Source: a virus (taxonomy: Duplodnaviria; Caudoviricetes). From it: a stretch of 41,907 bases of DNA. This document shows, in pieces, positions 2,255 through 41,050 of this stretch (within the stretch, counting starts at the first letter, position 1; each line of letters begins with the position of its first letter). Both the position numbers and the translations under genes were made by a program. Location: the IMG/VR virus record IMGVR_UViG_3300036792_000278, positions 1-41,907 of that record. One strand, written 5' to 3'. The notes beneath the pieces were generated by a model. The model was not told the DNA's origin. It did not search any database and saw nothing but the letters and a program-made list of their open reading frames with translations.

Positions 2255-2296
2255 ATGCGATACCCCATTGACTTCTGGTATGGGCTATCGCATAAT
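2255..2296 (+). promoter_or_regulatory. Promoter bracketed by a 14-bp inverted-repeat operator
   Basis: TTGACT(2268)-17 nt-CATAAT(2291); ATGCGATACCCCAT / ATGGGCTATCGCAT, one mismatch. Confidence 0.7.
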
Positions 2297-2340
2297 CAGG
2301 GTGTGGAGACGAAGACGGCCCCCGAGAACAGGAGACTGAG

Positions 2341-2649
2341 ATGACGGTCGATATCAACGATTCGCCGACCTACAGCATGCACCTGAATCAGTGGCTCGGC
2401 GGCGAGGTCCCGACGTTGCCGGATGGCCCAATCGAGCTGTACGAGCCGTGCGAAGCCGATCGCACATGGGAAATGGATGCCGATGCGAACTTCGAAGTCG
2501 AGTTCCGCGGCGAATATCCGGACATGATGGCTGCGATCAAGGATCTGGTCGGAGAATACGGCCGCTACATGTGGTCGACGCCCGACTCCAACACGTATCT
2601 GGGCTTCCTGAACCATGCCCCCGGATCGATCGCGATTATCACCTACTGA
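2341..2649 (+). CDS. Hypothetical protein
   Basis: 102 aa, AGGAG RBS, first gene after the 2268 promoter. Confidence 0.65.
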   Translation: MTVDINDSPTYSMHLNQWLGGEVPTLPDGPIELYEPCEADRTWEMDADANFEVEFRGEYPDMMAAIKDLVGEYGRYMWSTPDSNTYLGFLNHAPGSIAIITY

Positions 2650-2749
2650 ACGACCCGCGCCGAACCCCCTCTCGCTCGAAGAGAGGGGGCTGGCCTGGGC
2701 CGTCTCGCGGTGAGATGGCCGGTGAGAGAGATGGGGGGGGGGAATTGAG

Positions 2750-3106
2750 ATGACGACCGCAACCCGACCGACGATGACGCCCGCCGAGTATGCGAAGGAG
2801 ATTTACGCCGGTTGGCACAGAGAGGACACCGTGTGCTACACCGACAGTCGCGGCCGATTTCAACACTACTCGAATCGGCAATTGCTGCTGTATCTACCGG
2901 GCCGCCCCGAGATCGTCTCCCCTGGCTCCGGTGCGAGCGAGGAGCGCTGGATCAGCTACTGGCCGGAATCAGATGAGCCGGACATCCGCAGTGCGGCGGC
3001 GGACCGGTGCCGACGCGACGCCGAAGAACTCCGCTCCAACGTGGCTTCGGCCGGGACGATCGAGGACGCTGCGGAAATCGTCAATCGCTTCTATCAGGAA
3101 TCCTGA
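2750..3106 (+). CDS. Hypothetical protein
   Basis: 118 aa, G-rich RBS. Confidence 0.6.
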   Translation: MTTATRPTMTPAEYAKEIYAGWHREDTVCYTDSRGRFQHYSNRQLLLYLPGRPEIVSPGSGASEERWISYWPESDEPDIRSAAADRCRRDAEELRSNVASAGTIEDAAEIVNRFYQES

Positions 3107-3110
3107 CCCA

Positions 3111-3356
3111 ATGCCCGCTAAAACCCAACCCGCCCCCGGCGAGCGCGTCCGCGCTCGCCGCCTCGCGCTCGGTCTCAGCCAGACAGAGCTGGCCGAGCGC
3201 GCCGGCGTGGGGCAAGGCACGCTCAGCCGCTACGAGCGCGGTGACAGCGACCAGCTCTCGCGCGCCAACGTCTTCCTCCTCGCGCACCTGCTCGGGCTCC
3301 CAGCAAAGGACCTCGATCCGTGGTTCGCCGACTTCCACCCCTTTGAGGCTCCTTGA
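3111..3356 (+). CDS. XRE-family helix-turn-helix regulator
   Basis: GERVRARRLALGLSQTELAERAGVGQGTLSRYERG, classic HTH_3 pattern. Confidence 0.9.
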   Translation: MPAKTQPAPGERVRARRLALGLSQTELAERAGVGQGTLSRYERGDSDQLSRANVFLLAHLLGLPAKDLDPWFADFHPFEAP

Positions 3357-5911: not shown

Positions 5912-6922
5912 TCACGATTCCCCGAGAAGGCGTGACATTTCGCCCGCGACGTCCTCCAAGTTATCCACATACTTCTGAGTGGTCTTTGGGTCCTTGTGGC
6001 GGAGCGCTCGTTGGATCTTGAGCACGTTCCCGTTCGACCTCCGAGCCATCTCGGTCGCCGCCTGGTGGCGGAGCCCGTGGGGACGCGCCGGCGTCTTGAG
6101 GCCCGCGGCCGAGCTCACGACCCTCACCAGCTCCCAGACCGCCCGCCCGCCGATCCGTTGAACTTCCTTCGCTGCATGATCGAGCCGGACGAACAGCGGC
6201 CCCGGGTCTGAACCGCGGGCCTCAATCCAGCGCTCGAGGGCAGCGACCGTCTCGCCGTTGGGAGTGACCAGCTCCTTTTCATACCGACCCTTGCCGATGA
6301 TCGCGAGCCGGCCCGTCTCCGCATTCCAGTCGGCCAGATCGAGCTGCACGACCTCTTCGCGGCGGAGCGCGCTGAAGTAGAGCAGGCAGATGATGGAGAG
6401 GTTCCGCCGGCCGAGGTGCGTCCGGGTCGCCTCGCGTTGAGCGGATTCGTAGATCCTCAGCCAGCCAGCTCGGCCTGGCCCCGCTGTGTCTCGGTAGCTT
6501 TCCACCGGCAGCCCGTCGACCGTCAGAGCCCACGTGACGACGTCGTACCGGTTCGCGAGGTCGATGATCCGCGAGACGGTCGAGATCCGGCGGTTGACCG
6601 TCGTGGGTTTGAGGCCGCGGCCCAGCATCCATCGCTGGTATGCGGTCACCAGGGCGTTGGCCGGCCCCCGGCCGGAGCCGCACAGCCCGGCACACGCCGC
6701 CCTCGGGTGGGCCCCCGGCTCGAGGATGCTGCGCTCGATGAGGAACCGTAGCAGGTCCCGGACGTCGCTCTCGCGGGCCATGCGCGTCTTGTCCTTCGTC
6801 GCGTCGGCAAGGAGCGCGTCATACAGCTCCCACACGCCGATCGGTTTCACAACGGATGGCTGAAGAACAGCCGGTGAACAGCCGTCCTCATTTGGCAGGG
6901 GAACCAGCTCGTTATTCATCAT
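5912..6922 (-). CDS. Tyrosine recombinase (XerC-like resolvase), distinct from the integrase
   Basis: Catalytic set LRREE (R), GKG (K), HGLRH, LRHK, TQKY; likely start MMNNELV. Confidence 0.9.
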   Translation of the reverse strand: MMNNELVPLPNEDGCSPAVLQPSVVKPIGVWELYDALLADATKDKTRMARESDVRDLLRFLIERSILEPGAHPRAACAGLCGSGRGPANALVTAYQRWMLGRGLKPTTVNRRISTVSRIIDLANRYDVVTWALTVDGLPVESYRDTAGPGRAGWLRIYESAQREATRTHLGRRNLSIICLLYFSALRREEVVQLDLADWNAETGRLAIIGKGRYEKELVTPNGETVAALERWIEARGSDPGPLFVRLDHAAKEVQRIGGRAVWELVRVVSSAAGLKTPARPHGLRHQAATEMARRSNGNVLKIQRALRHKDPKTTQKYVDNLEDVAGEMSRLLGES

Positions 6923-6944
6923 AGTGTTTCCGTGTACACAAAGT

Positions 6945-6972
6945 GAAACTGCTAATGTCAATTATCTGAGGC
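6945..6972. promoter_or_regulatory. Putative Xer/dif-like recombination site upstream of the recombinase
   Basis: GAAACTGCTAA-TGTCAA-TTATCTGAGGC: 11-6-11 layout with TAA-N6-TTAT core. Confidence 0.45.
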
Positions 6973-8257: not shown

Positions 8258-8492
8258 ACGCAGCGAGCGCGATTTCGTGATCGCCCTGGCCGCGAAGAAC
8301 GGCCTCAGTGAGCGGCTGCTCGCGCGCGTCTTCGGCCTACCGAGATCTAGAGTCCACACGATCGTCGCTGAGGTCAAAGCCGCGTGGGATGAGCTGCGGG
8401 CCCACGAGGCACACAGCCGGCCGACCTATCGCGAGGTGTTTCGCGTGCGGAGCGACGGCCGGAAAAGAGAGCGGTCTAAGGCCGATTGGTAG
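8238..8492 (+). CDS. Small HTH protein
   Basis: NGLSERLLARVFGLPRSRVHTIV. Confidence 0.6.
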   Translation: MTRGQRERSERDFVIALAAKNGLSERLLARVFGLPRSRVHTIVAEVKAAWDELRAHEAHSRPTYREVFRVRSDGRKRERSKADW

Positions 8493-8506
8493 GGGGACCT
8501 TCGACG

Positions 8507-9319
8507 ATGGGCAAGTGGCCGCCGGGCACTGTGATCACGTGGGAGATCGACGCGCTTACCGTGGGTCTCCTCGACCTGCCGTACATTTACGGCCCGATCG
8601 CCCGAGGCATCGAGTCGTGGTCTGACGTGTGCGATATCGAGTTTGCTCCGGCCCAGCCGGGAGCGATCCCTTGTTTGGTCGTTCGGTTCATCGGCGACCT
8701 CATCACTGATCTGACCGCCGATTCCGACCCGACGAATCGGGCCGCATGGGTTGCCGGAACCGAACTCGGTTTGACCGATGAGCCCGTCCAGGCCCTTCCG
8801 GCGACGACTCTCATCATGCGGCTGAATCCCAACCCCTCTGGCGGATGGACGCCGCTCAAGCTCGAGCAGGTCGCCCGCCACGAAGCCGGGCACGCCCTCG
8901 GCCTCGACCACGCGCCCGACGGCGTTGTCTCGTGCATGTCCGCTTACTTGAACGAATCCGTGCTCATTCAACAGCCCTGGGAGATCGCACGAGCCCAGGC
9001 GCTTTACGGGCCGCCCGCGTTGCCGCCGGCACAAGCGGCCGTCCTCACCTCCGATCCCTCAACTGGAGTCCACTCCGTGGGTGCTCTTCTCACGCTTCTG
9101 ACCGGATCCGTTGCGCCGTTCGTCGCCGCCCAGGTGCTCAGGCTGATCGAAGCCGAGCTCAAGGCCGGCTCGCCGCTCGATGTGGCGATCCGGGCCGTGC
9201 TCGCCCAGCTCACTGCGAAGATTGCCGACCCGCAGACTCGCGCCAAGGCGGAGCAGCTCCTCACGGCGCTCCTCACTGTCGTCGAGGCGACGGCGGCGGG
9301 CGCTCTGCCGGCCGCGTGA
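8507..9319 (+). CDS. Matrixin (M10 metzincin) metalloprotease in the lysis-gene position
   Basis: HEAGHALGLDH zinc motif (8879-8911), Met-turn SCMSAY, ARGIESWSDVCDIEF helix; no signal peptide. Confidence 0.85.
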   Translation: MGKWPPGTVITWEIDALTVGLLDLPYIYGPIARGIESWSDVCDIEFAPAQPGAIPCLVVRFIGDLITDLTADSDPTNRAAWVAGTELGLTDEPVQALPATTLIMRLNPNPSGGWTPLKLEQVARHEAGHALGLDHAPDGVVSCMSAYLNESVLIQQPWEIARAQALYGPPALPPAQAAVLTSDPSTGVHSVGALLTLLTGSVAPFVAAQVLRLIEAELKAGSPLDVAIRAVLAQLTAKIADPQTRAKAEQLLTALLTVVEATAAGALPAA

Positions 9320-12032: not shown

Positions 12033-12794
12033 GCGCGGAGTTTCGGGTTCTCGATCTCTTCAGCGGGATCGGCGGATTCTCGCTCGGACTCGAGCGCGCG
12101 GGCATGAAGACCGTGGCTTTCTGTGAGTGCGACGGCTACGCGCGGCGCGTGCTCCGTAAGCACTGGCCGGCTGCCTGGATTTACGATGATGTGCAGACGT
12201 TGACGCATAAACGACTGAAGGCTGATGGAGTGTTCCCCAATGTCATTTGCGGTGGCTTCCCGTGCCAAGACATCAGCTTCGCTGGAAAACACAAGGGGAT
12301 CGAGGGTGAACGCTCAGGACTCTGGCGGGAGTTCAGCCGTCTTATTCGCGAGATTCGTCCGCGCTTCACGATCATGGAGAACGTTGCTGAGAACGCGATC
12401 GAGGGGACTCGATCGCGTTCTCAGCGACCTGGCCGCGCTCGGGTATGACGCGGAGTGGCATTGCATTCCGGCTTCCTCCGTTGGCGCGCCGCATATCCGC
12501 GATCGGGCCTGGATACTGGCCTACCCCACGGGCCTTGGACGGAAGCTGTCGGGCCCAGTGGTTCGGCAAGGGCAGTTACAGCAAGACCTCACTGACACTG
12601 CTCGGGAAGGCGATCGGGTGCAAGGAAAGAGGGCAAAAGGTCGACCAGCCTGGGAACGTGAACCCCGAATTCAGCGAGTGGTTGATGGGATTCCCTTCCA
12701 GATGGACCGACTTAGGTGTCTCGGAAACGCCGTCGTCCCGCTGATTCCTGAATTGATCGGACGAAGCATCATGAGCTTCGAAGGGGTAGCCTGA
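12029..12794 (+). pseudogene. dcm: C5 cytosine DNA methyltransferase alpha chain, frameshifted at ~12389-12395
   Basis: Motifs I (DLFSGIGG), IV (GFPCQ) and VI (ENV) in one frame; VIII (HIRDR) and X (LGNAVVP) in the +1 frame. Confidence 0.75.
12445..12744 (+). CDS. Overlapping-frame methyltransferase beta polypeptide (C-terminal part, motif IX)
   Basis: WPRSGMTRSG...WPTP...NPEFSEWLMGFPSRWTD nested inside the alpha gene, which itself lacks motif IX. Confidence 0.6.
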   Translation: MTRSGIAFRLPPLARRISAIGPGYWPTPRALDGSCRAQWFGKGSYSKTSLTLLGKAIGCKERGQKVDQPGNVNPEFSEWLMGFPSRWTDLGVSETPSSR

Positions 12795-14097: not shown

Positions 14098-16323
14098 GTG
14101 GCTGAGAAAGCCGAAGCCAACACCTACGGCCTGCCGCGCGGCGAGCCCATCCGCCGCGCGCTGGTCCGGCACTTCCGCGCGCAGCGGAAGTGGGCCTTAT
14201 CACAGATCGCATCCTGGACATCACAGAAAGATCTGCAAGACGATATCCCCGCCGCGTTCCCGCCCTTCCCGCAGACCCTAGGCGCGCTCGAGCTGGCGGA
14301 CCAGATGACCCCGCTCGTCTCGGTCTACTGGGACCAATCGGGCCAGCAGCTCAATTCGCGGCTCGGCATCGACCCCGACGCCTGGCGGGTCACGAACCCC
14401 CACACCGAGAGCATGATCCGCCGGGCGTCGTTCGACTTTTCGGCATCCACCAACGCCACGACGGCTCAATCACTGGATAAGGCCCTCGATAAGCTCAGGG
14501 AGGAGCTGATAGCAGGGGTGGTGAAATCGGGCGAGTCGGTCGAGGCATTAACCGACCGTGTCAATTCCATCTTCACCAAGGCAGAAGAGTGGCGGGCCAG
14601 GCGGATCGCACAGACCGAGGCATCGCGAGCCGTCCACGCGGCCCAGGACGAAGCAGGACGGCAGTCGGGCGTCGTTGCAGGGTGGGAGTGGCTTCTCTCG
14701 GGTGACGCGTGCCCGATGTGCCAGACGGTCGCACGGCGGGCCAGGAGCGTGCGCCTGGGCCAGCCGTTCGCGGAGATCGGTGACAACCCGACCTACAGGC
14801 ACGTAAGACACCCACCGCTTCACCCCCATTGCAACTGCACGATGCTCGAGGTCCTCACGACCGAGGCCGGCGATACCGACTGGGCCCAGACGCTCGTTGA
14901 CCCCAAACCGGAAGAGCAGGACAAGCCCGATTACGAGCCGGAGCCGGGCAAAGAGCCGCCGGTACCAAAGCCCTCGATCCCCTTCCTCGAAAAGCCGCCC
15001 GTCGTTGCCAAGCCGGCCCCAACGCCAAAACCTGCGCCGGTACCGCAGCAAGCGTTGCCTGAACCGGAGCCCCAACCGACGGTCGAATCACGACTGGAGG
15101 AAGCAGCTCGCTACGCGGCGGAGTTCAAGGTCTCCGCGCTAACCGACGGCAACGACATCATCACGAAGCTGATGGGTCAGAACGAGGCCAAGACGATCCC
15201 GGCCGCGTTCGTCCACAGCAAGGCCGCATCGTTCATCGCGCTGAATCAGAACCATCCGTATTGGGCCGATCCCAAGAGCTGGATGGCCAAACAGCGGGCC
15301 ATTGGCCAGTTCAGCACGGACGCGGAAAATCACCCGATCCTCCACGAAGTGGGCCACGCGATGCACCTGCGAAACGTCGGTCGAGAGCAATACCGGAAGC
15401 TCGACGCGATCATCTTCACTGCCGACGAGAAGAGCGCGATCGCGAAAGAGGTGAGTCGTTACGCGGCGACGAACGCCCGCGAGCTGGTCGCCGAGGTCTA
15501 TGCTGGCCACGTCACGGGCAAGACCTACAGTCCCCAGCTCACAAGCCTCTACAAAGCGATGGGCGGCCCAGAGGTCGCGGCCCCCAAGAAACCGAAGCCG
15601 AAACCGGCCCACACTCCCAAGCCCAAGAAGCCCAAGCCAGCTCCAACGCCGCGCCCGGAGCCGCCGATCGCCGCGGTACCGCCCAGGCCGTCGGACTTCC
15701 GGCCGGCCGCTGGCGAGCACTACAAGCCGTTCGCGAACGACGACGCGGCCTCGGCGTGGGGCGAGCGGTATCGGGAGACGATCCTCGCCTGGACGGACCA
15801 GGAACGGCAGGCCGTCGCGAGCTACGCCAACAACGCGTTCACGCTGATGAATGCGATGGAGCGCGGCGACGTCGACGCGGTCCCCAAGAAGGTCCGGAAG
15901 CAGGTCGCGAAGCTCAACGCCGAGGCCAAGACCGCGCTGGTCCAGGGAAAGACTGACCGGCCCGTGGTCGCGTACCGCGGGGTGGCCAATATCTACAAGA
16001 TGGGCTTCAAGTCCGTGGAGGACTTCCAGGAGGGAGTCGTCATCACGGAGAAGGGCTTCGGCTCGATGTCGCTCTCGCAGAAGACCGGGATCGGCTTCGC
16101 GACGAACGACGACAAAGCCTACGCCCCCGTGGTCTTCGAGATCCGCATGCCCACGGGCTCAACGGGTGTCTTCCTGAACGCGGGCGACCTGGCCGTCCAT
16201 CACACGGAGCTGGAATTCCTCGCTCCCCCCGACACGGAATACCGGGTCGTCGGCCGCGGGAAAAAGGTCACAAACCACTGGGGCAAAGAGGCCGATGTCG
16301 TGATCCTCGAGCGCGTGAGGTAA
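14098..16323 (+). CDS. MuF (SPP1 gp7-like) minor head protein fused to zincin metallopeptidase and ADP-ribosyltransferase domains
   Basis: RARRIAQTE, CPMC, PPLHPHCNC; HEVGH...SRYA..N.RELVAE; YRG / SMS / ELE ART triad. Confidence 0.9.
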   Translation: MAEKAEANTYGLPRGEPIRRALVRHFRAQRKWALSQIASWTSQKDLQDDIPAAFPPFPQTLGALELADQMTPLVSVYWDQSGQQLNSRLGIDPDAWRVTNPHTESMIRRASFDFSASTNATTAQSLDKALDKLREELIAGVVKSGESVEALTDRVNSIFTKAEEWRARRIAQTEASRAVHAAQDEAGRQSGVVAGWEWLLSGDACPMCQTVARRARSVRLGQPFAEIGDNPTYRHVRHPPLHPHCNCTMLEVLTTEAGDTDWAQTLVDPKPEEQDKPDYEPEPGKEPPVPKPSIPFLEKPPVVAKPAPTPKPAPVPQQALPEPEPQPTVESRLEEAARYAAEFKVSALTDGNDIITKLMGQNEAKTIPAAFVHSKAASFIALNQNHPYWADPKSWMAKQRAIGQFSTDAENHPILHEVGHAMHLRNVGREQYRKLDAIIFTADEKSAIAKEVSRYAATNARELVAEVYAGHVTGKTYSPQLTSLYKAMGGPEVAAPKKPKPKPAHTPKPKKPKPAPTPRPEPPIAAVPPRPSDFRPAAGEHYKPFANDDAASAWGERYRETILAWTDQERQAVASYANNAFTLMNAMERGDVDAVPKKVRKQVAKLNAEAKTALVQGKTDRPVVAYRGVANIYKMGFKSVEDFQEGVVITEKGFGSMSLSQKTGIGFATNDDKAYAPVVFEIRMPTGSTGVFLNAGDLAVHHTELEFLAPPDTEYRVVGRGKKVTNHWGKEADVVILERVR

Positions 16324-33587: not shown

Positions 33588-34543
33588 AGCCTTGCTCCTT
33601 TCTTGGCCTTGCGCCGGGGCGTTCGGCCGGCCGGCGCGGGGACGGCCTCGGCCTTGGCGACGATCGCCCGGAGGATCGCCCGGCCGACGTAGATCGGGAT
33701 TGCCTGGGCACACATCTTCCAGGAGCGAGAGATCCCTGCCGCGAAGAGGTAGTCTTCGGGGAAACCCTGTAGCGCGGCGGCTTCCTCGAAGCCGAGCCGC
33801 CGGATGCGGCCGTCCGGGAGCGAGATGAACGCAGCGCGGCAATGCCGCGAGCCCCAATCGAGCACGGTGTGACCGGGCTTGTCGGGGTCCCAGATCCGGA
33901 CCTTTCCGGACCCGTAATACTGTCGCGAGCAATGCGTCAGGTCCTCCATCCCCCCGACGGTCAGGTAAGGACCTGGCCTGAGGATGTCGCGCAGGACGCG
34001 AGGACCTGGCTCGGGTTCGGCCGGCCGAGGGAACCGGCCGAGGAAGGTGCGGACCCGCCGTTGCGGTCCATAGGTCGAGGCCTGGACGCGCCGTTTGGGG
34101 ATCGCCATCCCCAACTCGAGCTCGCTGGGCAAGTGCCGCTCGATCCCGATCACGTCCTCGATCGACCAAAACCGGGGGTCGAGGTCCCGGACCAGGCTGA
34201 GGATGGAATCGATCAGCCGATGCCAGTCGGCCATGACCTGCTTCGCGGCCGGCCGATTCCTCCGAGCGGCACTGACTTGCTCGCAGGGGATGCCCCCGAC
34301 GATCAGGTCGATCCCCCCTCCCAGCGGATTGAGACAGACCTCCCGAACGGCCTCAATGCCCTCCGGGCTCGAGAGGTCAACGCGGAGCCGCTGGCAGCTC
34401 GGGTGCGCCGCCGCGTGGTTTACGCGCCACGTTTCGAGACAATCCTCCGCCAGGTCCGCGACGGCCACCCACTCGATGGGGAGCCCCCGGGCCGCGAGGG
34501 CCCAGCCGCCACCGCCGCAACAAAGGTCGATGGCGCGGATCAC
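33584..34543 (-). CDS. dcm: C5 cytosine DNA methyltransferase with divergent motifs
   Basis: DLCCGGGG (I), GGIPCEQ (IV), IEDV (VI), QRRVR (VIII), LQGFP (IX), AQAIP (X). Confidence 0.85.
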   Translation of the reverse strand: MIRAIDLCCGGGGWALAARGLPIEWVAVADLAEDCLETWRVNHAAAHPSCQRLRVDLSSPEGIEAVREVCLNPLGGGIDLIVGGIPCEQVSAARRNRPAAKQVMADWHRLIDSILSLVRDLDPRFWSIEDVIGIERHLPSELELGMAIPKRRVQASTYGPQRRVRTFLGRFPRPAEPEPGPRVLRDILRPGPYLTVGGMEDLTHCSRQYYGSGKVRIWDPDKPGHTVLDWGSRHCRAAFISLPDGRIRRLGFEEAAALQGFPEDYLFAAGISRSWKMCAQAIPIYVGRAILRAIVAKAEAVPAPAGRTPRRKAKKGARL

Positions 34544-34743
34544 GAGCCACCCCCTTCCCCGCGGCCCAGCACGGCCCAGGAGCGATCGGGAGCGCCCGCG
34601 TCGAAGGTCGGGGCCTCAGCGCAGACGGCCGCGTAGGCGGTCCGCTGAAGCCCGTTGCCGATGGCAGCCGAAAGAGGTTGGCAGGGGCCGGCCGACGGAT
34701 CGACCGGCTGAGGGTGGGCAGGCTGCGAGGTAGGAGGTGAGCT

Positions 34744-35052
34744 GTGGCTAGGAGAGTCCGACAGTCCGACGCGGAGACGCTCGAACCCGCAGACGAGCTC
34801 CGAGAGTCCGAGGGGCAGGTCGATGGCGGAGAGGGAAAGGTCCGGCTCCGCCGTCAGGCGGTCCAGGTGACTCTCTCGGCGGAGGTAGCGTGGCGGCTCC
34901 GGACGATCGCGACGATGGAACGCAAGGCACCCGGGGAGATCGTGGAGCCTCTGATCGCGGCCCACGTCAAGAGCATCCGACTGCCCTGGGACCGTTACAA
35001 GCGGAGCACCGGCGCGGCTGGAGATTCCCAGACTCCGGTATCGGCAAACTAG
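34744..35052 (+). CDS. Putative ribbon-helix-helix regulator
   Basis: AGGAGGTGA RBS; VQVTLSAEVAWRLRTIATMERKAPGEIVEPLI. Confidence 0.6.
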   Translation: MARRVRQSDAETLEPADELRESEGQVDGGEGKVRLRRQAVQVTLSAEVAWRLRTIATMERKAPGEIVEPLIAAHVKSIRLPWDRYKRSTGAAGDSQTPVSAN

Positions 35053-35207
35053 ATAAGCCCGGTAAATGAATCGGTTGAAGGTTTTCCGATTCCGTAGAGT
35101 CTGACCTCTTCTGAGGAAAAATCCGCCCAACCCCAACCCGGGGCAGGGGAGGAGGTGGTTTCCCCGCCGTCCTCCCCCCCTGCTCCCGAGCTGTGGACCC
35201 ACGCGGT

Positions 35208-36188
35208 TTACGGAGTGCGCCGGTAGCCGATCGCACGCGTCGCCGCGGCGAGGTTGGCCAGGTCCGCGTGCCGGTAGATTTGCGACGTGAACGGCGACGT
35301 GTGCCGCAAGCATCGCTGAATGACGGGCTCGGTGATTCCCCAGGCACTCTCGGCGTGGGTCGCCCAGGAGTGGCGTAGGCTCTGGAAAGTCAGCCCCTTG
35401 ATCCCCACGGCCTCCCCGGCCGCCGCGAGCCGGTCTAACGGCCGGTATCCGCACGAGGCCTGGTCCCACGGCCCCAGGCGACGGATGCCCGGGAACAGCC
35501 AAATCGAGTCCGTTCGGGGGACCCAGGAGCGCAGCGCTTCGGCGAGCTGGTCCGGGATGGGGACGGGTGCCGCGCTCGCGATCGTCTTTAGCCGGCGGCG
35601 ACCCATGACGCGCAGGACCGGGTACGCCCAGTCGATATCGGCGACCTGGGTATAGAGCGCTTCGTCGCGTCGCACGCCGGTCAGCGCGACGAGCAAGCTG
35701 AGGGCATACAGCCGATGGCCGATCCAGTCGTCCACGTTGCCGGACAGGGACTCGAATAAGCGGACCATCGACTCCATCGAATGCCAGGGCTGTTGCCTGG
35801 GCGGCTCCGGTCTTATCCACGACCGGGTGCTCTTCCGCTTCCCCCGGAACGGCGAGCGCTCGACGAACGACTCCTCCTCGGCCCAGGTACACGCCGCCTT
35901 CAAATACCCCAGCTCCCCGACGATCGTGTTGGCACACACGGCCTCGGACCGGCGGCACACGTAGGCCGCGACCATCTCTTGCGTGAAATGAGCGGTCGTC
36001 CGGATCTTCGGCTTTTCGATCCCCGCCACCAGGTCGAGGATGTGCGACATCTGCCCATAGGTCGCCTGGGAGCGTTGCGGCGGTTTGTAGAGGACAAGGA
36101 ATTTCGAGCGAAACTTCGACAAAGCAATAGCTGGCATTGGGTTGCACTCCGGGCAAAAAATAAGGGGGGTGCCCGGAGTATGCAGCAT
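35208..36188 (-). CDS. int: Tyrosine integrase (true start may be ~50 nt downstream)
   Basis: TGVRRDEAL, LKT, QSLRHSWATH, LRHTS, SQIY; adjacent to attP. Confidence 0.9.
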   Translation of the reverse strand: MLHTPGTPLIFCPECNPMPAIALSKFRSKFLVLYKPPQRSQATYGQMSHILDLVAGIEKPKIRTTAHFTQEMVAAYVCRRSEAVCANTIVGELGYLKAACTWAEEESFVERSPFRGKRKSTRSWIRPEPPRQQPWHSMESMVRLFESLSGNVDDWIGHRLYALSLLVALTGVRRDEALYTQVADIDWAYPVLRVMGRRRLKTIASAAPVPIPDQLAEALRSWVPRTDSIWLFPGIRRLGPWDQASCGYRPLDRLAAAGEAVGIKGLTFQSLRHSWATHAESAWGITEPVIQRCLRHTSPFTSQIYRHADLANLAAATRAIGYRRTP

Positions 36189-36280
36189 GGAGAAGCGGGG
36201 AAAGTCGCCACAAGTTTAACGCATGTCCCGACATGCGATTTGTGACGCCGGCGCGAAAGTGAGTGTATCGTGCCCCCCAT

Positions 36281-36324
36281 TTTCGTAAAGCGGGGGTTGA
36301 GGGTTCGACTCCCCCCGGTGGCTC
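36281..36324 (+). other. attP core: 3' half of tRNA-Thr(CGT)
   Basis: TTCGTAA anticodon loop, AGCGG, GGGTT, GAGGG-TTCGACT-CCCCC T-arm, CGGTGGC acceptor strand; no 5' half present. Confidence 0.8.
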
Positions 36325-36371
36325 TGGATGGCTGCCCAAAACGGCCGTCCAACCCTGCCTCGAAAGTCCCT

Positions 36372-36399
36372 TTGAAGTGGTCATGAGATCACCTAGAAT
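36372..36399 (+). promoter_or_regulatory. Putative promoter of the antisense sRNA
   Basis: TTGAAG-16 nt-TAGAAT. Confidence 0.45.
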
Positions 36400-36405
36400 G
36401 GAGTG

Positions 36406-36476
36406 ACGGAGCGGCGGGTCCTTGTGGTATTACCGACCCCGGGGCACTTTCTCAGGGCACCCCGGGGTCGGTTTTT
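36406..36476 (+). ncRNA. Candidate trans-acting antisense RNA targeting the start of gene 38476..38087
   Basis: 13-bp perfect stem plus T tract; loop 36445-36459 identical to 38474-38488; 36419-36428 identical to 38449-38458. Confidence 0.6.
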
Positions 36477-36481
36477 GCGCG

Positions 36482-36723
36482 AGCGCCAGAATTAGCGCCA
36501 GAATTCCCTCAGATTTGGCGAATTCTGGCGCTGTTAAGGGCAGTCCTCGAAAGGAGTTGCGCGAGCGCCAGAATTCCCCGTTGGCCACGCGGGCCCGTGC
36601 GCGGGCCCGGGCCCGCGTGGCAAGAAACGAATTCTGGCGCTGACGTAAGCGGATGCGGCGCAACGGGTTGACAGCGCCAGAATTCCCCAAATCCGGCCGA
36701 ATTCTGGCGCGAATTCTGGCGCT
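36482..36723. repeat. Palindromic iteron array, putative replication origin
   Basis: Eight copies of GCGCCAGAATT(C) ordered F F R F | R F R R around a 14-bp GC hairpin at 36584-36621; directly downstream of the helicase. Confidence 0.75.
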
Positions 36724-38090
36724 CAGGCGATCGGGGTTTCCGGGGCATCGTTGCGGGCCTCCGGGGTGTCGCCGTCTCGGAGCTCGAGCTCGGGGGTTAG
36801 CTCGATCCACTTGCGACCGTCCTTCTCGCCCTTGAACTCATGCACCCGTTTGGCCAGCCGCTTGATCGCCAGGTACACCGTCGCCCGCTTGGCGTCGAGT
36901 GCATCCTCTGCTTCTTCGAGGAGCGTCTTCAGCTTGATCGCTCCGTCGCCGAGCCGCTTGATGATGAACTCCTGGAGCTCCATGGTCCGGTCGGTCTTCG
37001 GGCCGGGCTTGCCGTCGATCTCTCCCCGCATCGCTTGTTGTGCGAGCTGAAAGGCGACCTGCTTGGCGGTCAGATGGACCGGCGAAGGGTCCCAGACGAC
37101 CTGGCCGCTCTTGAAGCCGACGGAAAGGCCCGTGGTCGTCTTGTCCACCGGGTTGCCCTTGATGAACGAGAGCAGTCGTCGGCTGTGGTCGCGCGGGTCC
37201 GTCGAGTAGAACCACACCATGCGGCTCTTGTTGACAAACGCGGCCGAGCCCTGAATCCGGGCCTGGATGTCAGCACTGGATTGCTTCGTCAAATGCGCGA
37301 TCAGAATCGCCGCGAGGCGGTGATCCTCCGCCAGTTTGAACAGCGGATTGAGCGCGTGCTGGACCTCGGCGTCATTGCCCGTATCCGAGCCGCTCAGGTA
37401 GGAGCCGATCGGGTCGATGAACACCCCGTGAACGTTGCCGATGGCGGCGACGGCAAGGCTCAGATATGGCACGTCCCGCGAGAGCGAGAAGCGATCCTCG
37501 GTGCCATCGGGGGCATGAGTCGAAGTCATGATGTGGACGCGAGACAGGTCGGCACCGTGGCGACTGAGACGGGGCCGAATATCCGTTGCCGCGTTCTCTT
37601 CCGCGGACAGGATGACCACGTTCCCGGGTTCCCTTGATAGGCCGCCAGGGGCATCGGGCCAGGGCGCGCCGGTCGTGATGCACGCGATGAGAGAGCCGGT
37701 CAACGTCGACTTGCCGGCGCCTCCATCGCCGGCGATAAGGGAGACGGTTCGCCGAGGAATACGACCGGGCCAAGTCCACTCGTATTCCTCTTCCTCGATC
37801 TCATTGATGCACGTAAGGGAGACCCACCGCTTGCGCGACTCCGAACCTTGGGGAAGCGGCGGCTCAGCCGATTGCTTCTTTTTCTTGCCCCGGCCCTCGG
37901 CGAGGAGTCCCTGGTTTTTCAGCCAGAGATAAGACCTTTGCGCCTTGGGGCCATCGTGTTGCCCGCGCTTCCCCGATCGCTCGATGTGGAAGCGGATTCG
38001 CTCCGTGGTCGAGTAGAACACTTCGCCGTCATCGTCGTCCTCGGGCGGGATGGGGACCGGGTTCGGATGGTCGGGTGTTTGCTGGCTCAT
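36723..38090 (-). CDS. AAA_25/RepA-like (RecA-fold) replicative helicase
   Basis: WTWPGRIP, Walker A GDGGAGKST, SAEEN, Walker B VFIDP, AHLTK, GSAAF. Confidence 0.9.
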   Translation of the reverse strand: MSQQTPDHPNPVPIPPEDDDDGEVFYSTTERIRFHIERSGKRGQHDGPKAQRSYLWLKNQGLLAEGRGKKKKQSAEPPLPQGSESRKRWVSLTCINEIEEEEYEWTWPGRIPRRTVSLIAGDGGAGKSTLTGSLIACITTGAPWPDAPGGLSREPGNVVILSAEENAATDIRPRLSRHGADLSRVHIMTSTHAPDGTEDRFSLSRDVPYLSLAVAAIGNVHGVFIDPIGSYLSGSDTGNDAEVQHALNPLFKLAEDHRLAAILIAHLTKQSSADIQARIQGSAAFVNKSRMVWFYSTDPRDHSRRLLSFIKGNPVDKTTTGLSVGFKSGQVVWDPSPVHLTAKQVAFQLAQQAMRGEIDGKPGPKTDRTMELQEFIIKRLGDGAIKLKTLLEEAEDALDAKRATVYLAIKRLAKRVHEFKGEKDGRKWIELTPELELRDGDTPEARNDAPETPIA

Positions 38091-38476
38091 TTCCGGCCCT
38101 CCGGCGCAACCGGGGACTGGCCGTAAGCGAGAAGCTGTTCCCAGCCGCTCGACGTTCGACGCGAACGATCGCCGACGAAGAACGGCATGCCGGGGATGAT
38201 AAAGCGGGCCTCATCCGTCCAGGCGGGCCATTCGGATGGATCGACGTCGGCCGAGACGACTTCGCGGTCCGTCCATGACGGCCACGAAAGGGCCCGGGGC
38301 GGCTCGGGCGGCTCGCTGGGCGTGGCCTGGGGATTGACGGGGGGAGCGAGGTCGGGGTAGTCTGTTCGACGCTCGGAGCCGGTGCGGGACGGACGGGGGG
38401 CGCAGGAGCGGACCGCTCCCCGCGATGCGAGGATCTTCATGAGTTGCTTCCTTGTGGTGACAGCTTCGCGGGCCAC
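38087..38476 (-). CDS. Hypothetical protein translationally coupled to the helicase
   Basis: GTG start; stop overlaps the helicase ATG (ATGA). Confidence 0.55.
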   Translation of the reverse strand: MAREAVTTRKQLMKILASRGAVRSCAPRPSRTGSERRTDYPDLAPPVNPQATPSEPPEPPRALSWPSWTDREVVSADVDPSEWPAWTDEARFIIPGMPFFVGDRSRRTSSGWEQLLAYGQSPVAPEGRK

Positions 38477-38548
38477 TTTCTCAGGGCAACCCGTTGAAGC
38501 CGGCTGACTGATTGAACTCGGCTAATCTACCCTTCGCCTCCAATTCCC

Positions 38549-38863
38549 TCAAGCACCTTGACGCGGCCCCCCACGCGGCGGCAACTCAAAGGACGCCGCC
38601 AGCTCCTTCACCAGGTCGCGGGGCTCGACAGCCGTGGGCCGGCGGTAGCAGTCGAGCAACACGCCGTCGCGCACCCAGAGGATCGCGCCACACGGGCACT
38701 CCCAGAGCTCGATCCACGCATCGACCTGCTGGCCGTCGGTGTCGAAAAAGCTATCGAGAAACTTCGATGCGAGGCTGAGCTCGCCCGTGCAGCTCGACGT
38801 CCCGATCGCGGGCCAGCGCTCGAGGATCTCGCCGTGCCGTCCGAGGTAGGGTCTCAACTCCAT
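38549..38863 (-). CDS. Hypothetical protein (CPCG motif)
   Basis: Start MELRPYL, GAGGAG upstream. Confidence 0.5.
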   Translation of the reverse strand: MELRPYLGRHGEILERWPAIGTSSCTGELSLASKFLDSFFDTDGQQVDAWIELWECPCGAILWVRDGVLLDCYRRPTAVEPRDLVKELAASFELPPRGGPRQGA

Positions 38864-39958: not shown

Positions 39959-41050
39959 TTACGCGGCGTTAATGGTTCGCCCAGCGTGGCCGCCGCTCAG
40001 CCAGTTCTGGGCGTCTTCGCAGGTGATGATGCCCGGTTCCACGACCAAAGCATAAATCCGCGCCGTGGAGGGGCAGGCGCAGACCAGCACGGTTTCGCCG
40101 TCGGGGCCGCGCATGAGGCACTCGCGCGTGGCTTCGACGTCATTGCGCCGCTTGTCGAGGATCACAGCGTCCGTCTCGCGGAGGTAACGGTCCCAGCCGA
40201 AGCGTTCGATGCGAATCCGCTTCACCTCGGCGTTGGACTCGGAGCGGATCTGGGCGATCCTCTGCGTCTCCGGGGTCATGACGATCTGCTCGTCGACCTG
40301 GACGCCGCCGATCCGCCACGTGCTCCAACCGTCGCGGAAGCGAACGGCCGGGCCCGTGGTCGAGTGCAGTCGGCCATCGACCATTGAGCAGATCTCGGGA
40401 CGGTCCGACAGGACACAAATCCCCTCGTAGGGCCACCACCAATTGCAAGAGCGATCGACCTCGATCCACCAGCCGAGCCGCTCGCGATGGGCAGGGTCGT
40501 ATTTCACCCCGATCTGCTCGGGGAAGGTGTAGAACGCGAGCCAAAATGCTTCGTGTTGACCCCAGAAATAATTGCTGTCAAAGGCGACTCTCTGGTCGCG
40601 GAGCTGGCCGCGGAGCTGGCCGCTGAGCTGGTCGCAGAGCTGGTCGCAGAGCTGGCCGCTGAGCTGGTCGCAGAGCTGGCCGCTGAGCTGGCCGCGGAGC
40701 TGGTCGCTGAGCTGGTCGCGGAGCTGGCCGCGGAGCTGGTCGCAGAGCTGGTCGCAGAGCTGGCCGCGGAGCTGGCCGCGGAGCTGGTCGCAGAGCTGGC
40801 CGCGGAGCTGGCCGCGGAGCTTAGGGAGCTCCTTGAAGAAGTGGAGATAGAAATGAGCCGACAGCGGGGACGGAGCCCAGAGGTAGAGCGGGGGCTTCTT
40901 GCCGATGGCTGCGTACATTTTCGCGATCGCCGCCTCCGCGCGCGGACGGTCCGCCGGCTCCGTGCACAGGCCCACGTTGAGCCACTCCTCCCGCCAGCGC
41001 GGGAGGAGTTCTTGTTGCTCGGGCGTCAGTTTTTCGATCTTGCGCGTCAT
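39959..41050 (-). CDS. DUF6745-domain protein with internal tetrapeptide repeats
   Basis: [58 protein letters not shown]. Confidence 0.8.
40592..40821. repeat. 12-bp tandem repeat, 19 units
   Basis: GAGCTGGYCGCD units encoding QL(R/C/S)(G/D). Confidence 0.95.

Follow-up and report, generated by a model that had tools for sequence, protein, structure and literature searches.

A putative trans-encoded antisense RNA family with phage-specific loops faces the replication operon of likely Planctomycete temperate phages

Why should a small RNA gene beside the attachment site of a phage share the letters of its hairpin loop and 5′ tail with the leader of a replication operon 2.0 kb away? The question arises in the window, by which we mean the whole 41,907-nt stretch analysed here, a 41.9-kb virus record (IMGVR_UViG_3300036792_000278) with head, tail and terminase genes. 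A preliminary description had reported a promoter, a stem, a T tract, a repeated 15-nt loop and a second repeated block of 10 nt, and all of these stand where it had placed them. A promoter scan gives a predicted sigma-70 promoter (TTGAAG-16-TAGAAT, 36372..36399, + strand), whose position is conserved among relatives, and behind it lies a predicted small RNA of ~70 nt (36406..36476, +), its start inferred from the –10 box; the family model R2 described below supports it. This RNA would comprise a 5′ tail block (36419..36428, +) complementary to the Shine-Dalgarno (SD) region of a leader open reading frame (ORF), and a 13-bp stem with a 15-nt recognition loop (36432..36472, +; loop 36445-36459). 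The stem arms (36432-36444 and 36460-36472) pair perfectly and a T run follows at 36472-36476. The loop has the same letters as 38474-38488, and the tail block, TCCTTGTGGT, occurs both at 36419-36428 and at 38449-38458, with gaps to the loop match of 16 and 15 nt, respectively. The stem arms agree with the target region at just 5/13 and 6/13 places.

A lone 15-nt direct repeat is unremarkable in a window of 65% GC, which holds 13 repeats of exactly 15 nt, and order-4 Markov copies of it hold about 7 repeated 15-mers. The two-block match of loop plus tail is rare: the window scores 25 in its own region, and a score of at least 25 was seen in 1 of 1722 non-cognate RNA/region pairs, this single pair being two phages with the same loop. 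On its targetable strand the window offers no further loop match of at least 9 nt, leaving one target only. Searching viral contigs for the exact two-block DNA pattern gave 0 matches, as expected if the letters differ between phages. The impression that the loop 12-mer is widespread was rejected, since it is present in 21 of 401 genomes (about 13 for a control pattern) and none of the 20 places examined is a family hairpin. Contigs from one DNA sequencing run span both repeat copies without differences from the window; they leave a gap at 36281-36373, save for one other tRNA-like contig, and no joint marking an integration junction of the window phage was found among them.

On the target side, an AAA_25 helicase-like replication gene (36723..38090, –) starts within a 4-nt overlap with the stop of a 117-aa leader ORF (38087..38440, –) that carries the motif RRxxYPDL...WPxWTD and has no Pfam, PHROG or Atlas feature match. 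The preliminary description had the RNA loop masking a GTG start codon at 38476. That codon opens the longest frame (38476..38087) but has no SD-like letters, and it lies in a predicted stem with unpaired probabilities of 0.44, 0.08 and 0.01. ATG 38440 is the start both in the database gene call (P0002) and in the sole homologue (P0003), and AAGGA stands 8 nt ahead of it. The gene therefore most likely starts at ATG 38440, with GTG 38476 probably unused, and the proposed geometry changes accordingly: the 10-nt block (ACCACAAGGA, 38449..38458, –) covers the SD, and the 15-nt match falls on the apex (38477-38485) of a predicted bulged leader hairpin (38461..38502, –). A possible leader promoter, TTGAGG-17-TAGATT (38524..38552, –), was read by eye and is not listed by the consensus scan; sites resembling it (TTG..-17-TAGACT) occur in loci L001, L008, L064 and L216.

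Relatives were collected through searches with the helicase, the integrase and the Rad52-like protein, which gave 11 further loci with the layout of the window in other letters; Rad52 as an anchor mostly returned loci without integrase, helicase or tRNA. Loop and tail matches were immediately visible in 10 of the 11; in the eleventh (L033/L216), inspection by eye revealed a weaker target of 9+7 nt. Alignment of the discovery loci revealed a conserved TTGACn-17-TACAAT promoter facing the hairpin. Because the repeat itself led to these loci, they do not test the pattern independently. A covariance model, R2, was built of the promoter, tail and hairpin, with no tRNA or target letters inside; its forerunner R1 was discarded because of spurious promoter pairs. 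R2 matches 32 of 121 genomes of the family of genome G001 at E ≤ 0.05, and the clade of the attP-adjacent integrase is present in 19 of the 121. A control set of 20 loci of distant integrases gave no match, nor did L003, L005 and L006, although L005 has a tRNA attP and an integrase of the clade. Outside the first set, 5 of 7 class-level hits were rejected as ordinary short-loop terminators.

The held-out set, built from 29 R2-hit places and integrase flanks, comprises 35 new hits, with echoes on the reverse strand set aside, as were weak and partial ones in L256, L257 and L123. Five with less than 1.2 kb downstream were dropped, leaving 30 to be scored. In 14 of these the score reached at least 18 in the hit's own downstream region, and in every one of the 14 this region came top among 42; of the 1722 non-cognate RNA/region pairs, 26 scored that high. 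Behind a full tRNA the share was 10 of 15. The strongest cross-matches are between phages with the same loop (the window with L220; L034 with L183). The covariation between loop and target that had been put forward as a check thus holds in relatives.

For the anatomy of the family we used 36 members, consisting of 12 training loci and 24 held-out hits judged real by tRNA, attP or target. In the stem, 87.5% of cells are paired, compared with 67.9% in shuffles and 34-53% in slid controls; this share exceeds all 500 shuffles, and two-sided changes occur at 12 of 13 pairs. A promoter-like site scoring at least 16 is found in 30/36 members versus 4% of control windows, a count biased upward among the held-out hits because R2 contained the promoter. 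At least 4 T within an 11-nt window at the stem end are seen in 32/36, and the predicted RNA length is mostly 55-75 nt. The motif TTGGCG or CGCCAA is present in 10/36 loops (shuffle mean 0.46, maximum 4 among 2000).

A target could be mapped in 26 systems, which fall into 21 loop classes; L216 and L019 were excluded as their block had been mis-assigned by the script. A gene of promoter, tail, hairpin and U-tract faces the replication operon, and in many phages its loop and tail fit their own leader. The own leader gives the best loop-plus-tail duplex in 25/26 systems (the exception has the winner's loop), a ranking that informs on specificity only, since the systems were chosen by their match. 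An ATG lies 1-14 nt past the tail target in 23/26 systems versus 13% of random places, and the predicted hairpin apex lies inside the match in 25/26 versus 43% of controls. The first ORF is short in 20/26 systems and overlaps the next start by 4 nt in 14 of the 20 (the script favoured overlaps), while a long ORF is targeted directly in the other 6/26. The short leader ORFs have the RRxxYPDL and WPxWTD motifs in common and belong to no known family. Genes downstream of the leader encode helicases, primases or helix-turn-helix (HTH) proteins (AAA_25, DnaB-N with DUF3987, D5 primase-helicase or weakly scoring HTH), and many have no Pfam match; the replication proteins in this position are interchangeable between phages.

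The pattern of agreement between the two sites is also informative. Identity between the outer stem arms and the target is near random (0.29 and 0.32), and loop and tail blocks are spaced differently in the RNA than in its target, a pattern consistent with RNA pairing rather than with a DNA site. Where blocks can be extended, 10 mismatches are G-U-compatible and 3 are not (p 0.046). Co-folding of the window RNA with its leader is predicted to gain ~23 kcal/mol over the two monomers. Sequence comparison backs the proposal of a small RNA that would act in trans on the helicase-coupled gene through two pairing segments.

Our preferred reading, to which we assign a probability of a little over 70%, is that a constitutive trans-encoded antisense RNA blocks the first gene of the replication operon together with the coupled helicase, keeps the prophage quiet and likely confers loop-specific immunity. 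The RNA would be made from its own promoter, and its loop would first kiss the loop of the leader hairpin. Pairing would then spread to the upper stems, and the 5′ tail would finally cover the SD, such that translation of the leader ORF is lost and the coupled replication gene is turned off. The role of the RNA would be prophage silence and immunity. In 13/26 systems the last long ORF extends into or through the RNA gene, so that its message would hold the RNA's perfect complement; at induction, strong early transcription, running through the RNA gene in many members, could yield this complement and titrate the RNA. The family most likely represses the replication operon, and likely acts as a swappable repressor of replication in temperate Planctomycete phages.

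Several observations weigh against this reading. The RNA itself is a prediction from sequence. In the held-out set, 16/30 hits score below 18: targets of L242 and L254 were recognised by eye, L223 and L224 are accounted for by the two-unit RNAs described below, L232 and L233 resemble orphans, L226 is short, and the nine remaining hits, all without a tRNA, are probably ordinary terminators. Related phages in the counts are not independent of one another, R2 contained the promoter, and the 26 systems were selected by their loop/tail match. Tests of strand are weak, with all flanking mismatches being G-U-compatible in 27 cases versus 17 (p 0.087), and the duplex being better on the proposed strands in 18 versus 8 (p 0.084). 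In 17/26 systems the opposite strand gives the more stable leader hairpin, and leader hairpins are only modestly stable (median z –0.62). YUNR in target loops is not enriched (14/26 versus 15.5 expected); RNA loops have it in 20/26 versus 14.7 in shuffled loops, and the window's target loop has CUGA. Protein repressor candidates also exist in the window. The earlier statement that no classical CI repressor is evident stands in its narrow sense, but an XRE HTH gene of 81 aa (3111-3356) is present, as is a possible ribbon-helix-helix (RHH) gene of 77 aa (1857-2090; weak match, and no match in a fold search with its protein). Divergent promoters lie beside them, TTGACA-16-TACAAT leftward, with the palindrome TGTAG-N7-CTACA in its spacer, and TTGTCC-17-TAGAAT rightward; together, these promoters and genes (1719-2090 and 2268-3356) are likely a protein switch. 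With such candidates present, lysogeny may not be governed chiefly by the RNA, and protein repressors may sit above it in the hierarchy.

Is the RNA switched on by integration? The attP core (36281..36323, +) is the 3′ half of tRNA-Thr(CGT), with 41/43 letters the same as the full tRNA-Thr(CGT) of L228, and the placement proposed for the lysogen, with the RNA directly following the rebuilt host tRNA in the same orientation, is borne out at 20/20 loci with a full tRNA (Ala-CGC, Thr-CGT, Ile-GAT, Asp-GTC, CAT, Lys-CTT and Arg-TCG), where 45-224 nt separate the tRNA end from the stem. The preliminary description took this to mean that tRNA read-through could raise the RNA specifically in the lysogen and silence replication. 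Most tRNA-RNA gaps lack a U-tract terminator. No promoter is clear in L232, L242 and L244, the last with a 28-nt cognate match, and read-through may be the only source of their RNA. As a general switch, read-through nevertheless appears unlikely: 30/36 members, the window included, have their own promoter, so that read-through is not needed, and in 16/20 loci a hairpin at least as stable as –10 kcal/mol lies between tRNA and promoter (no control was run). In the window this is a 7-bp hairpin without U-tract (36326..36350, +), read from the sequence.

The same RNA-leader pairing could instead serve copy-number feedback or timing in lytic or plasmid-like replication, in the manner of CopA, rather than silencing and immunity. 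The order of leader ORF, coupled replication gene and origin is that of tap-repA-ori in plasmid R1 (PMC12361487), and the RNA gene adjoins a likely origin, where its dose would track copy number. The attL-side placement, the 21 loop classes among 26 systems, the two-loop units and the orphans (see below) are easier to explain under immunity or interference, and we regard copy-number control as a serious but rather improbable explanation. A different outcome of pairing, premature transcription termination in the leader instead of a ribosome block, seems less plausible still. Blocked translation could lay the message open to Rho, which speaks for it, as does the P4 CI RNA, which silences the P4 replication genes in this way (PMC4825925); the tail target falls on the ribosome-binding region, however, and no U-tract follows the window's leader hairpin. 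Finally, the match could be a relic of duplication or gene conversion, or a DNA operator, with the hairpin doing no more than terminating transcription from the tRNA and from the converging operon. Both copies have the same orientation, as direct repeats do, a U-tract follows the hairpin, and copying is a likely route for keeping the pair matched. Yet the match is limited to loop and tail while the stems differ and the spacing varies, and the SD-centred tail, the conserved promoter and the compensatory stem changes over many systems speak otherwise. This reading is already disfavoured and, in our estimate, highly improbable.

Under the preferred reading, that of an antisense RNA silencing the replication operon, the closest relatives in design are replication-control RNAs of plasmids. 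CopA/CopT of R1, Inc RNA/RNAI of I-complex plasmids (PMC10724649, PMC3753616) and RNAII of pMV158 likewise set a loop and a single-stranded 5′ tail on a rep leader. The CopA system blocks the leader ORF tap, which is coupled to repA (PMC12361487), and here too the RNA is predicted to meet a leader hairpin ahead of a short ORF whose translation is coupled to that of a replication gene. RNAII of pMV158 has the tail-hairpin-U-tract shape of the phage RNAs (PMC4485353). The UUGGCG/CGCCAA loops may be a further likeness to Inc RNA, as a title cited in PMC10724649 names rUUGGCG for the ColIb-P9 Inc RNA target loop, and loop changes, which create new specificity groups in the plasmids, would do so here as well. 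However, the plasmid RNAs are made opposite their target and are fully complementary to it, whereas the phage RNA is a separate, partly matching copy ~1-6 kb off, past the replication genes and at the attP of a temperate phage.

Known trans-acting RNAs differ in other ways. C4 of phages P1 and P7 is a processed multi-stem RNA. It sits in the c4-icd-ant operon on the same strand and controls an antirepressor, while the RNA described here is one hairpin on the opposite strand, presumably its own transcript, with a replication operon as target. Both would pair in trans through two short segments near a ribosome-binding site, an arrangement that in P1/P7 sets heteroimmunity (PMC12197685, PMC8198154; see also PMC2864571). 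The P4 CI RNA is an immunity factor that silences P4's own replication genes in the lysogen (PMC4825925), but it is excised from its target transcript and terminates via seqA and seqC on either side, whereas the RNA described here would come from its own convergent gene and has a single target, in two parts, at a start codon. In pAD1 par, RNA II is a convergent gene whose direct repeats DRa/DRb are read oppositely and which blocks ribosome binding (PMC4147584); it is directed at a toxin peptide, within a compact locus that has one terminator in common, in contrast to a replication leader kilobases off and a repeat that forms a hairpin loop. An Rfam search, which the preliminary description had proposed, gave no match to any covariance model, C4 (RF01695) included, in the window or the loci of 8 relatives at E ≤ 1. 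No account of this RNA was found in the literature searched, which was mostly open-access, and supplements of RNA-motif surveys could hold one. This family of trans-encoded antisense RNAs with a phage-specific loop and an anti-ribosome-binding-site tail is apparently real and undescribed.

Some RNAs carry more than one loop. L223 was at first an apparent counter-example, since its tail matches its leader and its loop does not. In both tRNA-Ile elements of G001 (referred to as A and B), and in these 2 alone among 38 elements scanned, a second tail-hairpin unit lies 17 nt downstream, forming tandem two-unit RNAs with different loops (L275:640-830 and L297:340-530; G001:C1 near 2900700 and 2921900). 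The second loop of element A matches its own leader over 18 nt (–31.0 kcal/mol). The first loop, common to A and B, matches the leader of element B over 16 nt; it also pairs with that of prophage L220 in G001 (–25.1) and with the window's (–24.2), against just –9.6 with that of element A. For the second loop of element B no target was found within the 7 kb examined. The common unit could be explained by recombination between neighbours. In addition, orphan promoter-hairpin units with the window's loop class lie amid host genes in two genomes (L272:11150-11270 in G172 and L273 near 14958 in G175), within a 1.4-kb segment that is 91% alike between the genomes; the 5′ part adds an extra hairpin. 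These orphans have no tRNA or target, an integrase of the clade is absent at E ≤ 1e-40, and the 12-mer does not recur. The two-unit RNAs and orphans are a hint of cross-phage interference. We tentatively extend this to a modular RNA-guided immunity code, for which the odds are less than even, with a fixed promoter-tail-hairpin scaffold and a swappable loop, in which phages would add units against rivals and hosts would keep orphans as defence.

If the preferred reading is true, this would be a first case of an RNA controlling the replication of temperate phages in Planctomycetota, whose phages have hardly been studied, and it would join the plasmid kissing-loop mechanism with a trans-encoded phage gene. 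The ~21 natural loop-leader classes are predicted to be largely orthogonal, which would make the evolution of immunity groups directly testable and provide ready riboregulator parts. The two-loop units and orphans suggest use of these RNAs by phages and hosts against other phages.

Relatives of the window's Rad52-like gene and integrase lie in Planctomycetota, mostly Isosphaeraceae, and from where they occur we infer a host of the Planctomycetota/Isosphaeraceae type; phages and prophages of Isosphaeraceae also show the RNA layout of the window. In a search of GenBank phages, the 8 records listed, of 69, contained only helicases of ~27% identity. The early genes, encoding the Rad52-like protein, DUF6745 and the AAA_25 helicase, run leftward. 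Two tyrosine integrases are encoded: one beside attP (35208..36188, –; Pfam Phage_integrase, PHROG 1), and a second tyrosine recombinase at 5912-6961 (–), with a homologue similarly placed in L012 and L021. A 614-aa frame overlying the former integrase (34540-36384) is also found in L001 and L002, and was rejected as the usual stop-poor frame in GC-rich genes. Altered, near full-length copies of tRNA-Thr(CGT) stand at the att site of two viral contigs (L002:4770-4845 and L019 near 12400-12480). At L232:717-788, L233:134-247 and L241:806-927, RNA genes follow a host tRNA, and the sequence downstream of them showed no replication leader; these are possibly prophage scars that retain the RNA.

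In the likely replication origin (36483..36722), GCGCCAGAATT is repeated eight times, in both orientations, about a GC palindrome, and the same layout with other repeat letters occurs in L001 (2200-2450), L064 (near 8460-8620) and L275 (1040-1310), where 11-nt phage-specific repeats flank a GC-rich alternating palindrome. In all four the array lies right after the U-tract of the RNA gene. At the ends of the window (41907/1), an open frame at the left end meets a stop codon past the end-to-start join, which fits a circular genome. The DUF6745 gene contains a 12-nt tandem repeat (40592-40822, –), and L001 begins with a similar one. Among the structural genes, 14098-16323 (+) encodes a MuF head protein with a fused ADP-ribosyltransferase domain, of the MuF polymorphic-toxin type.

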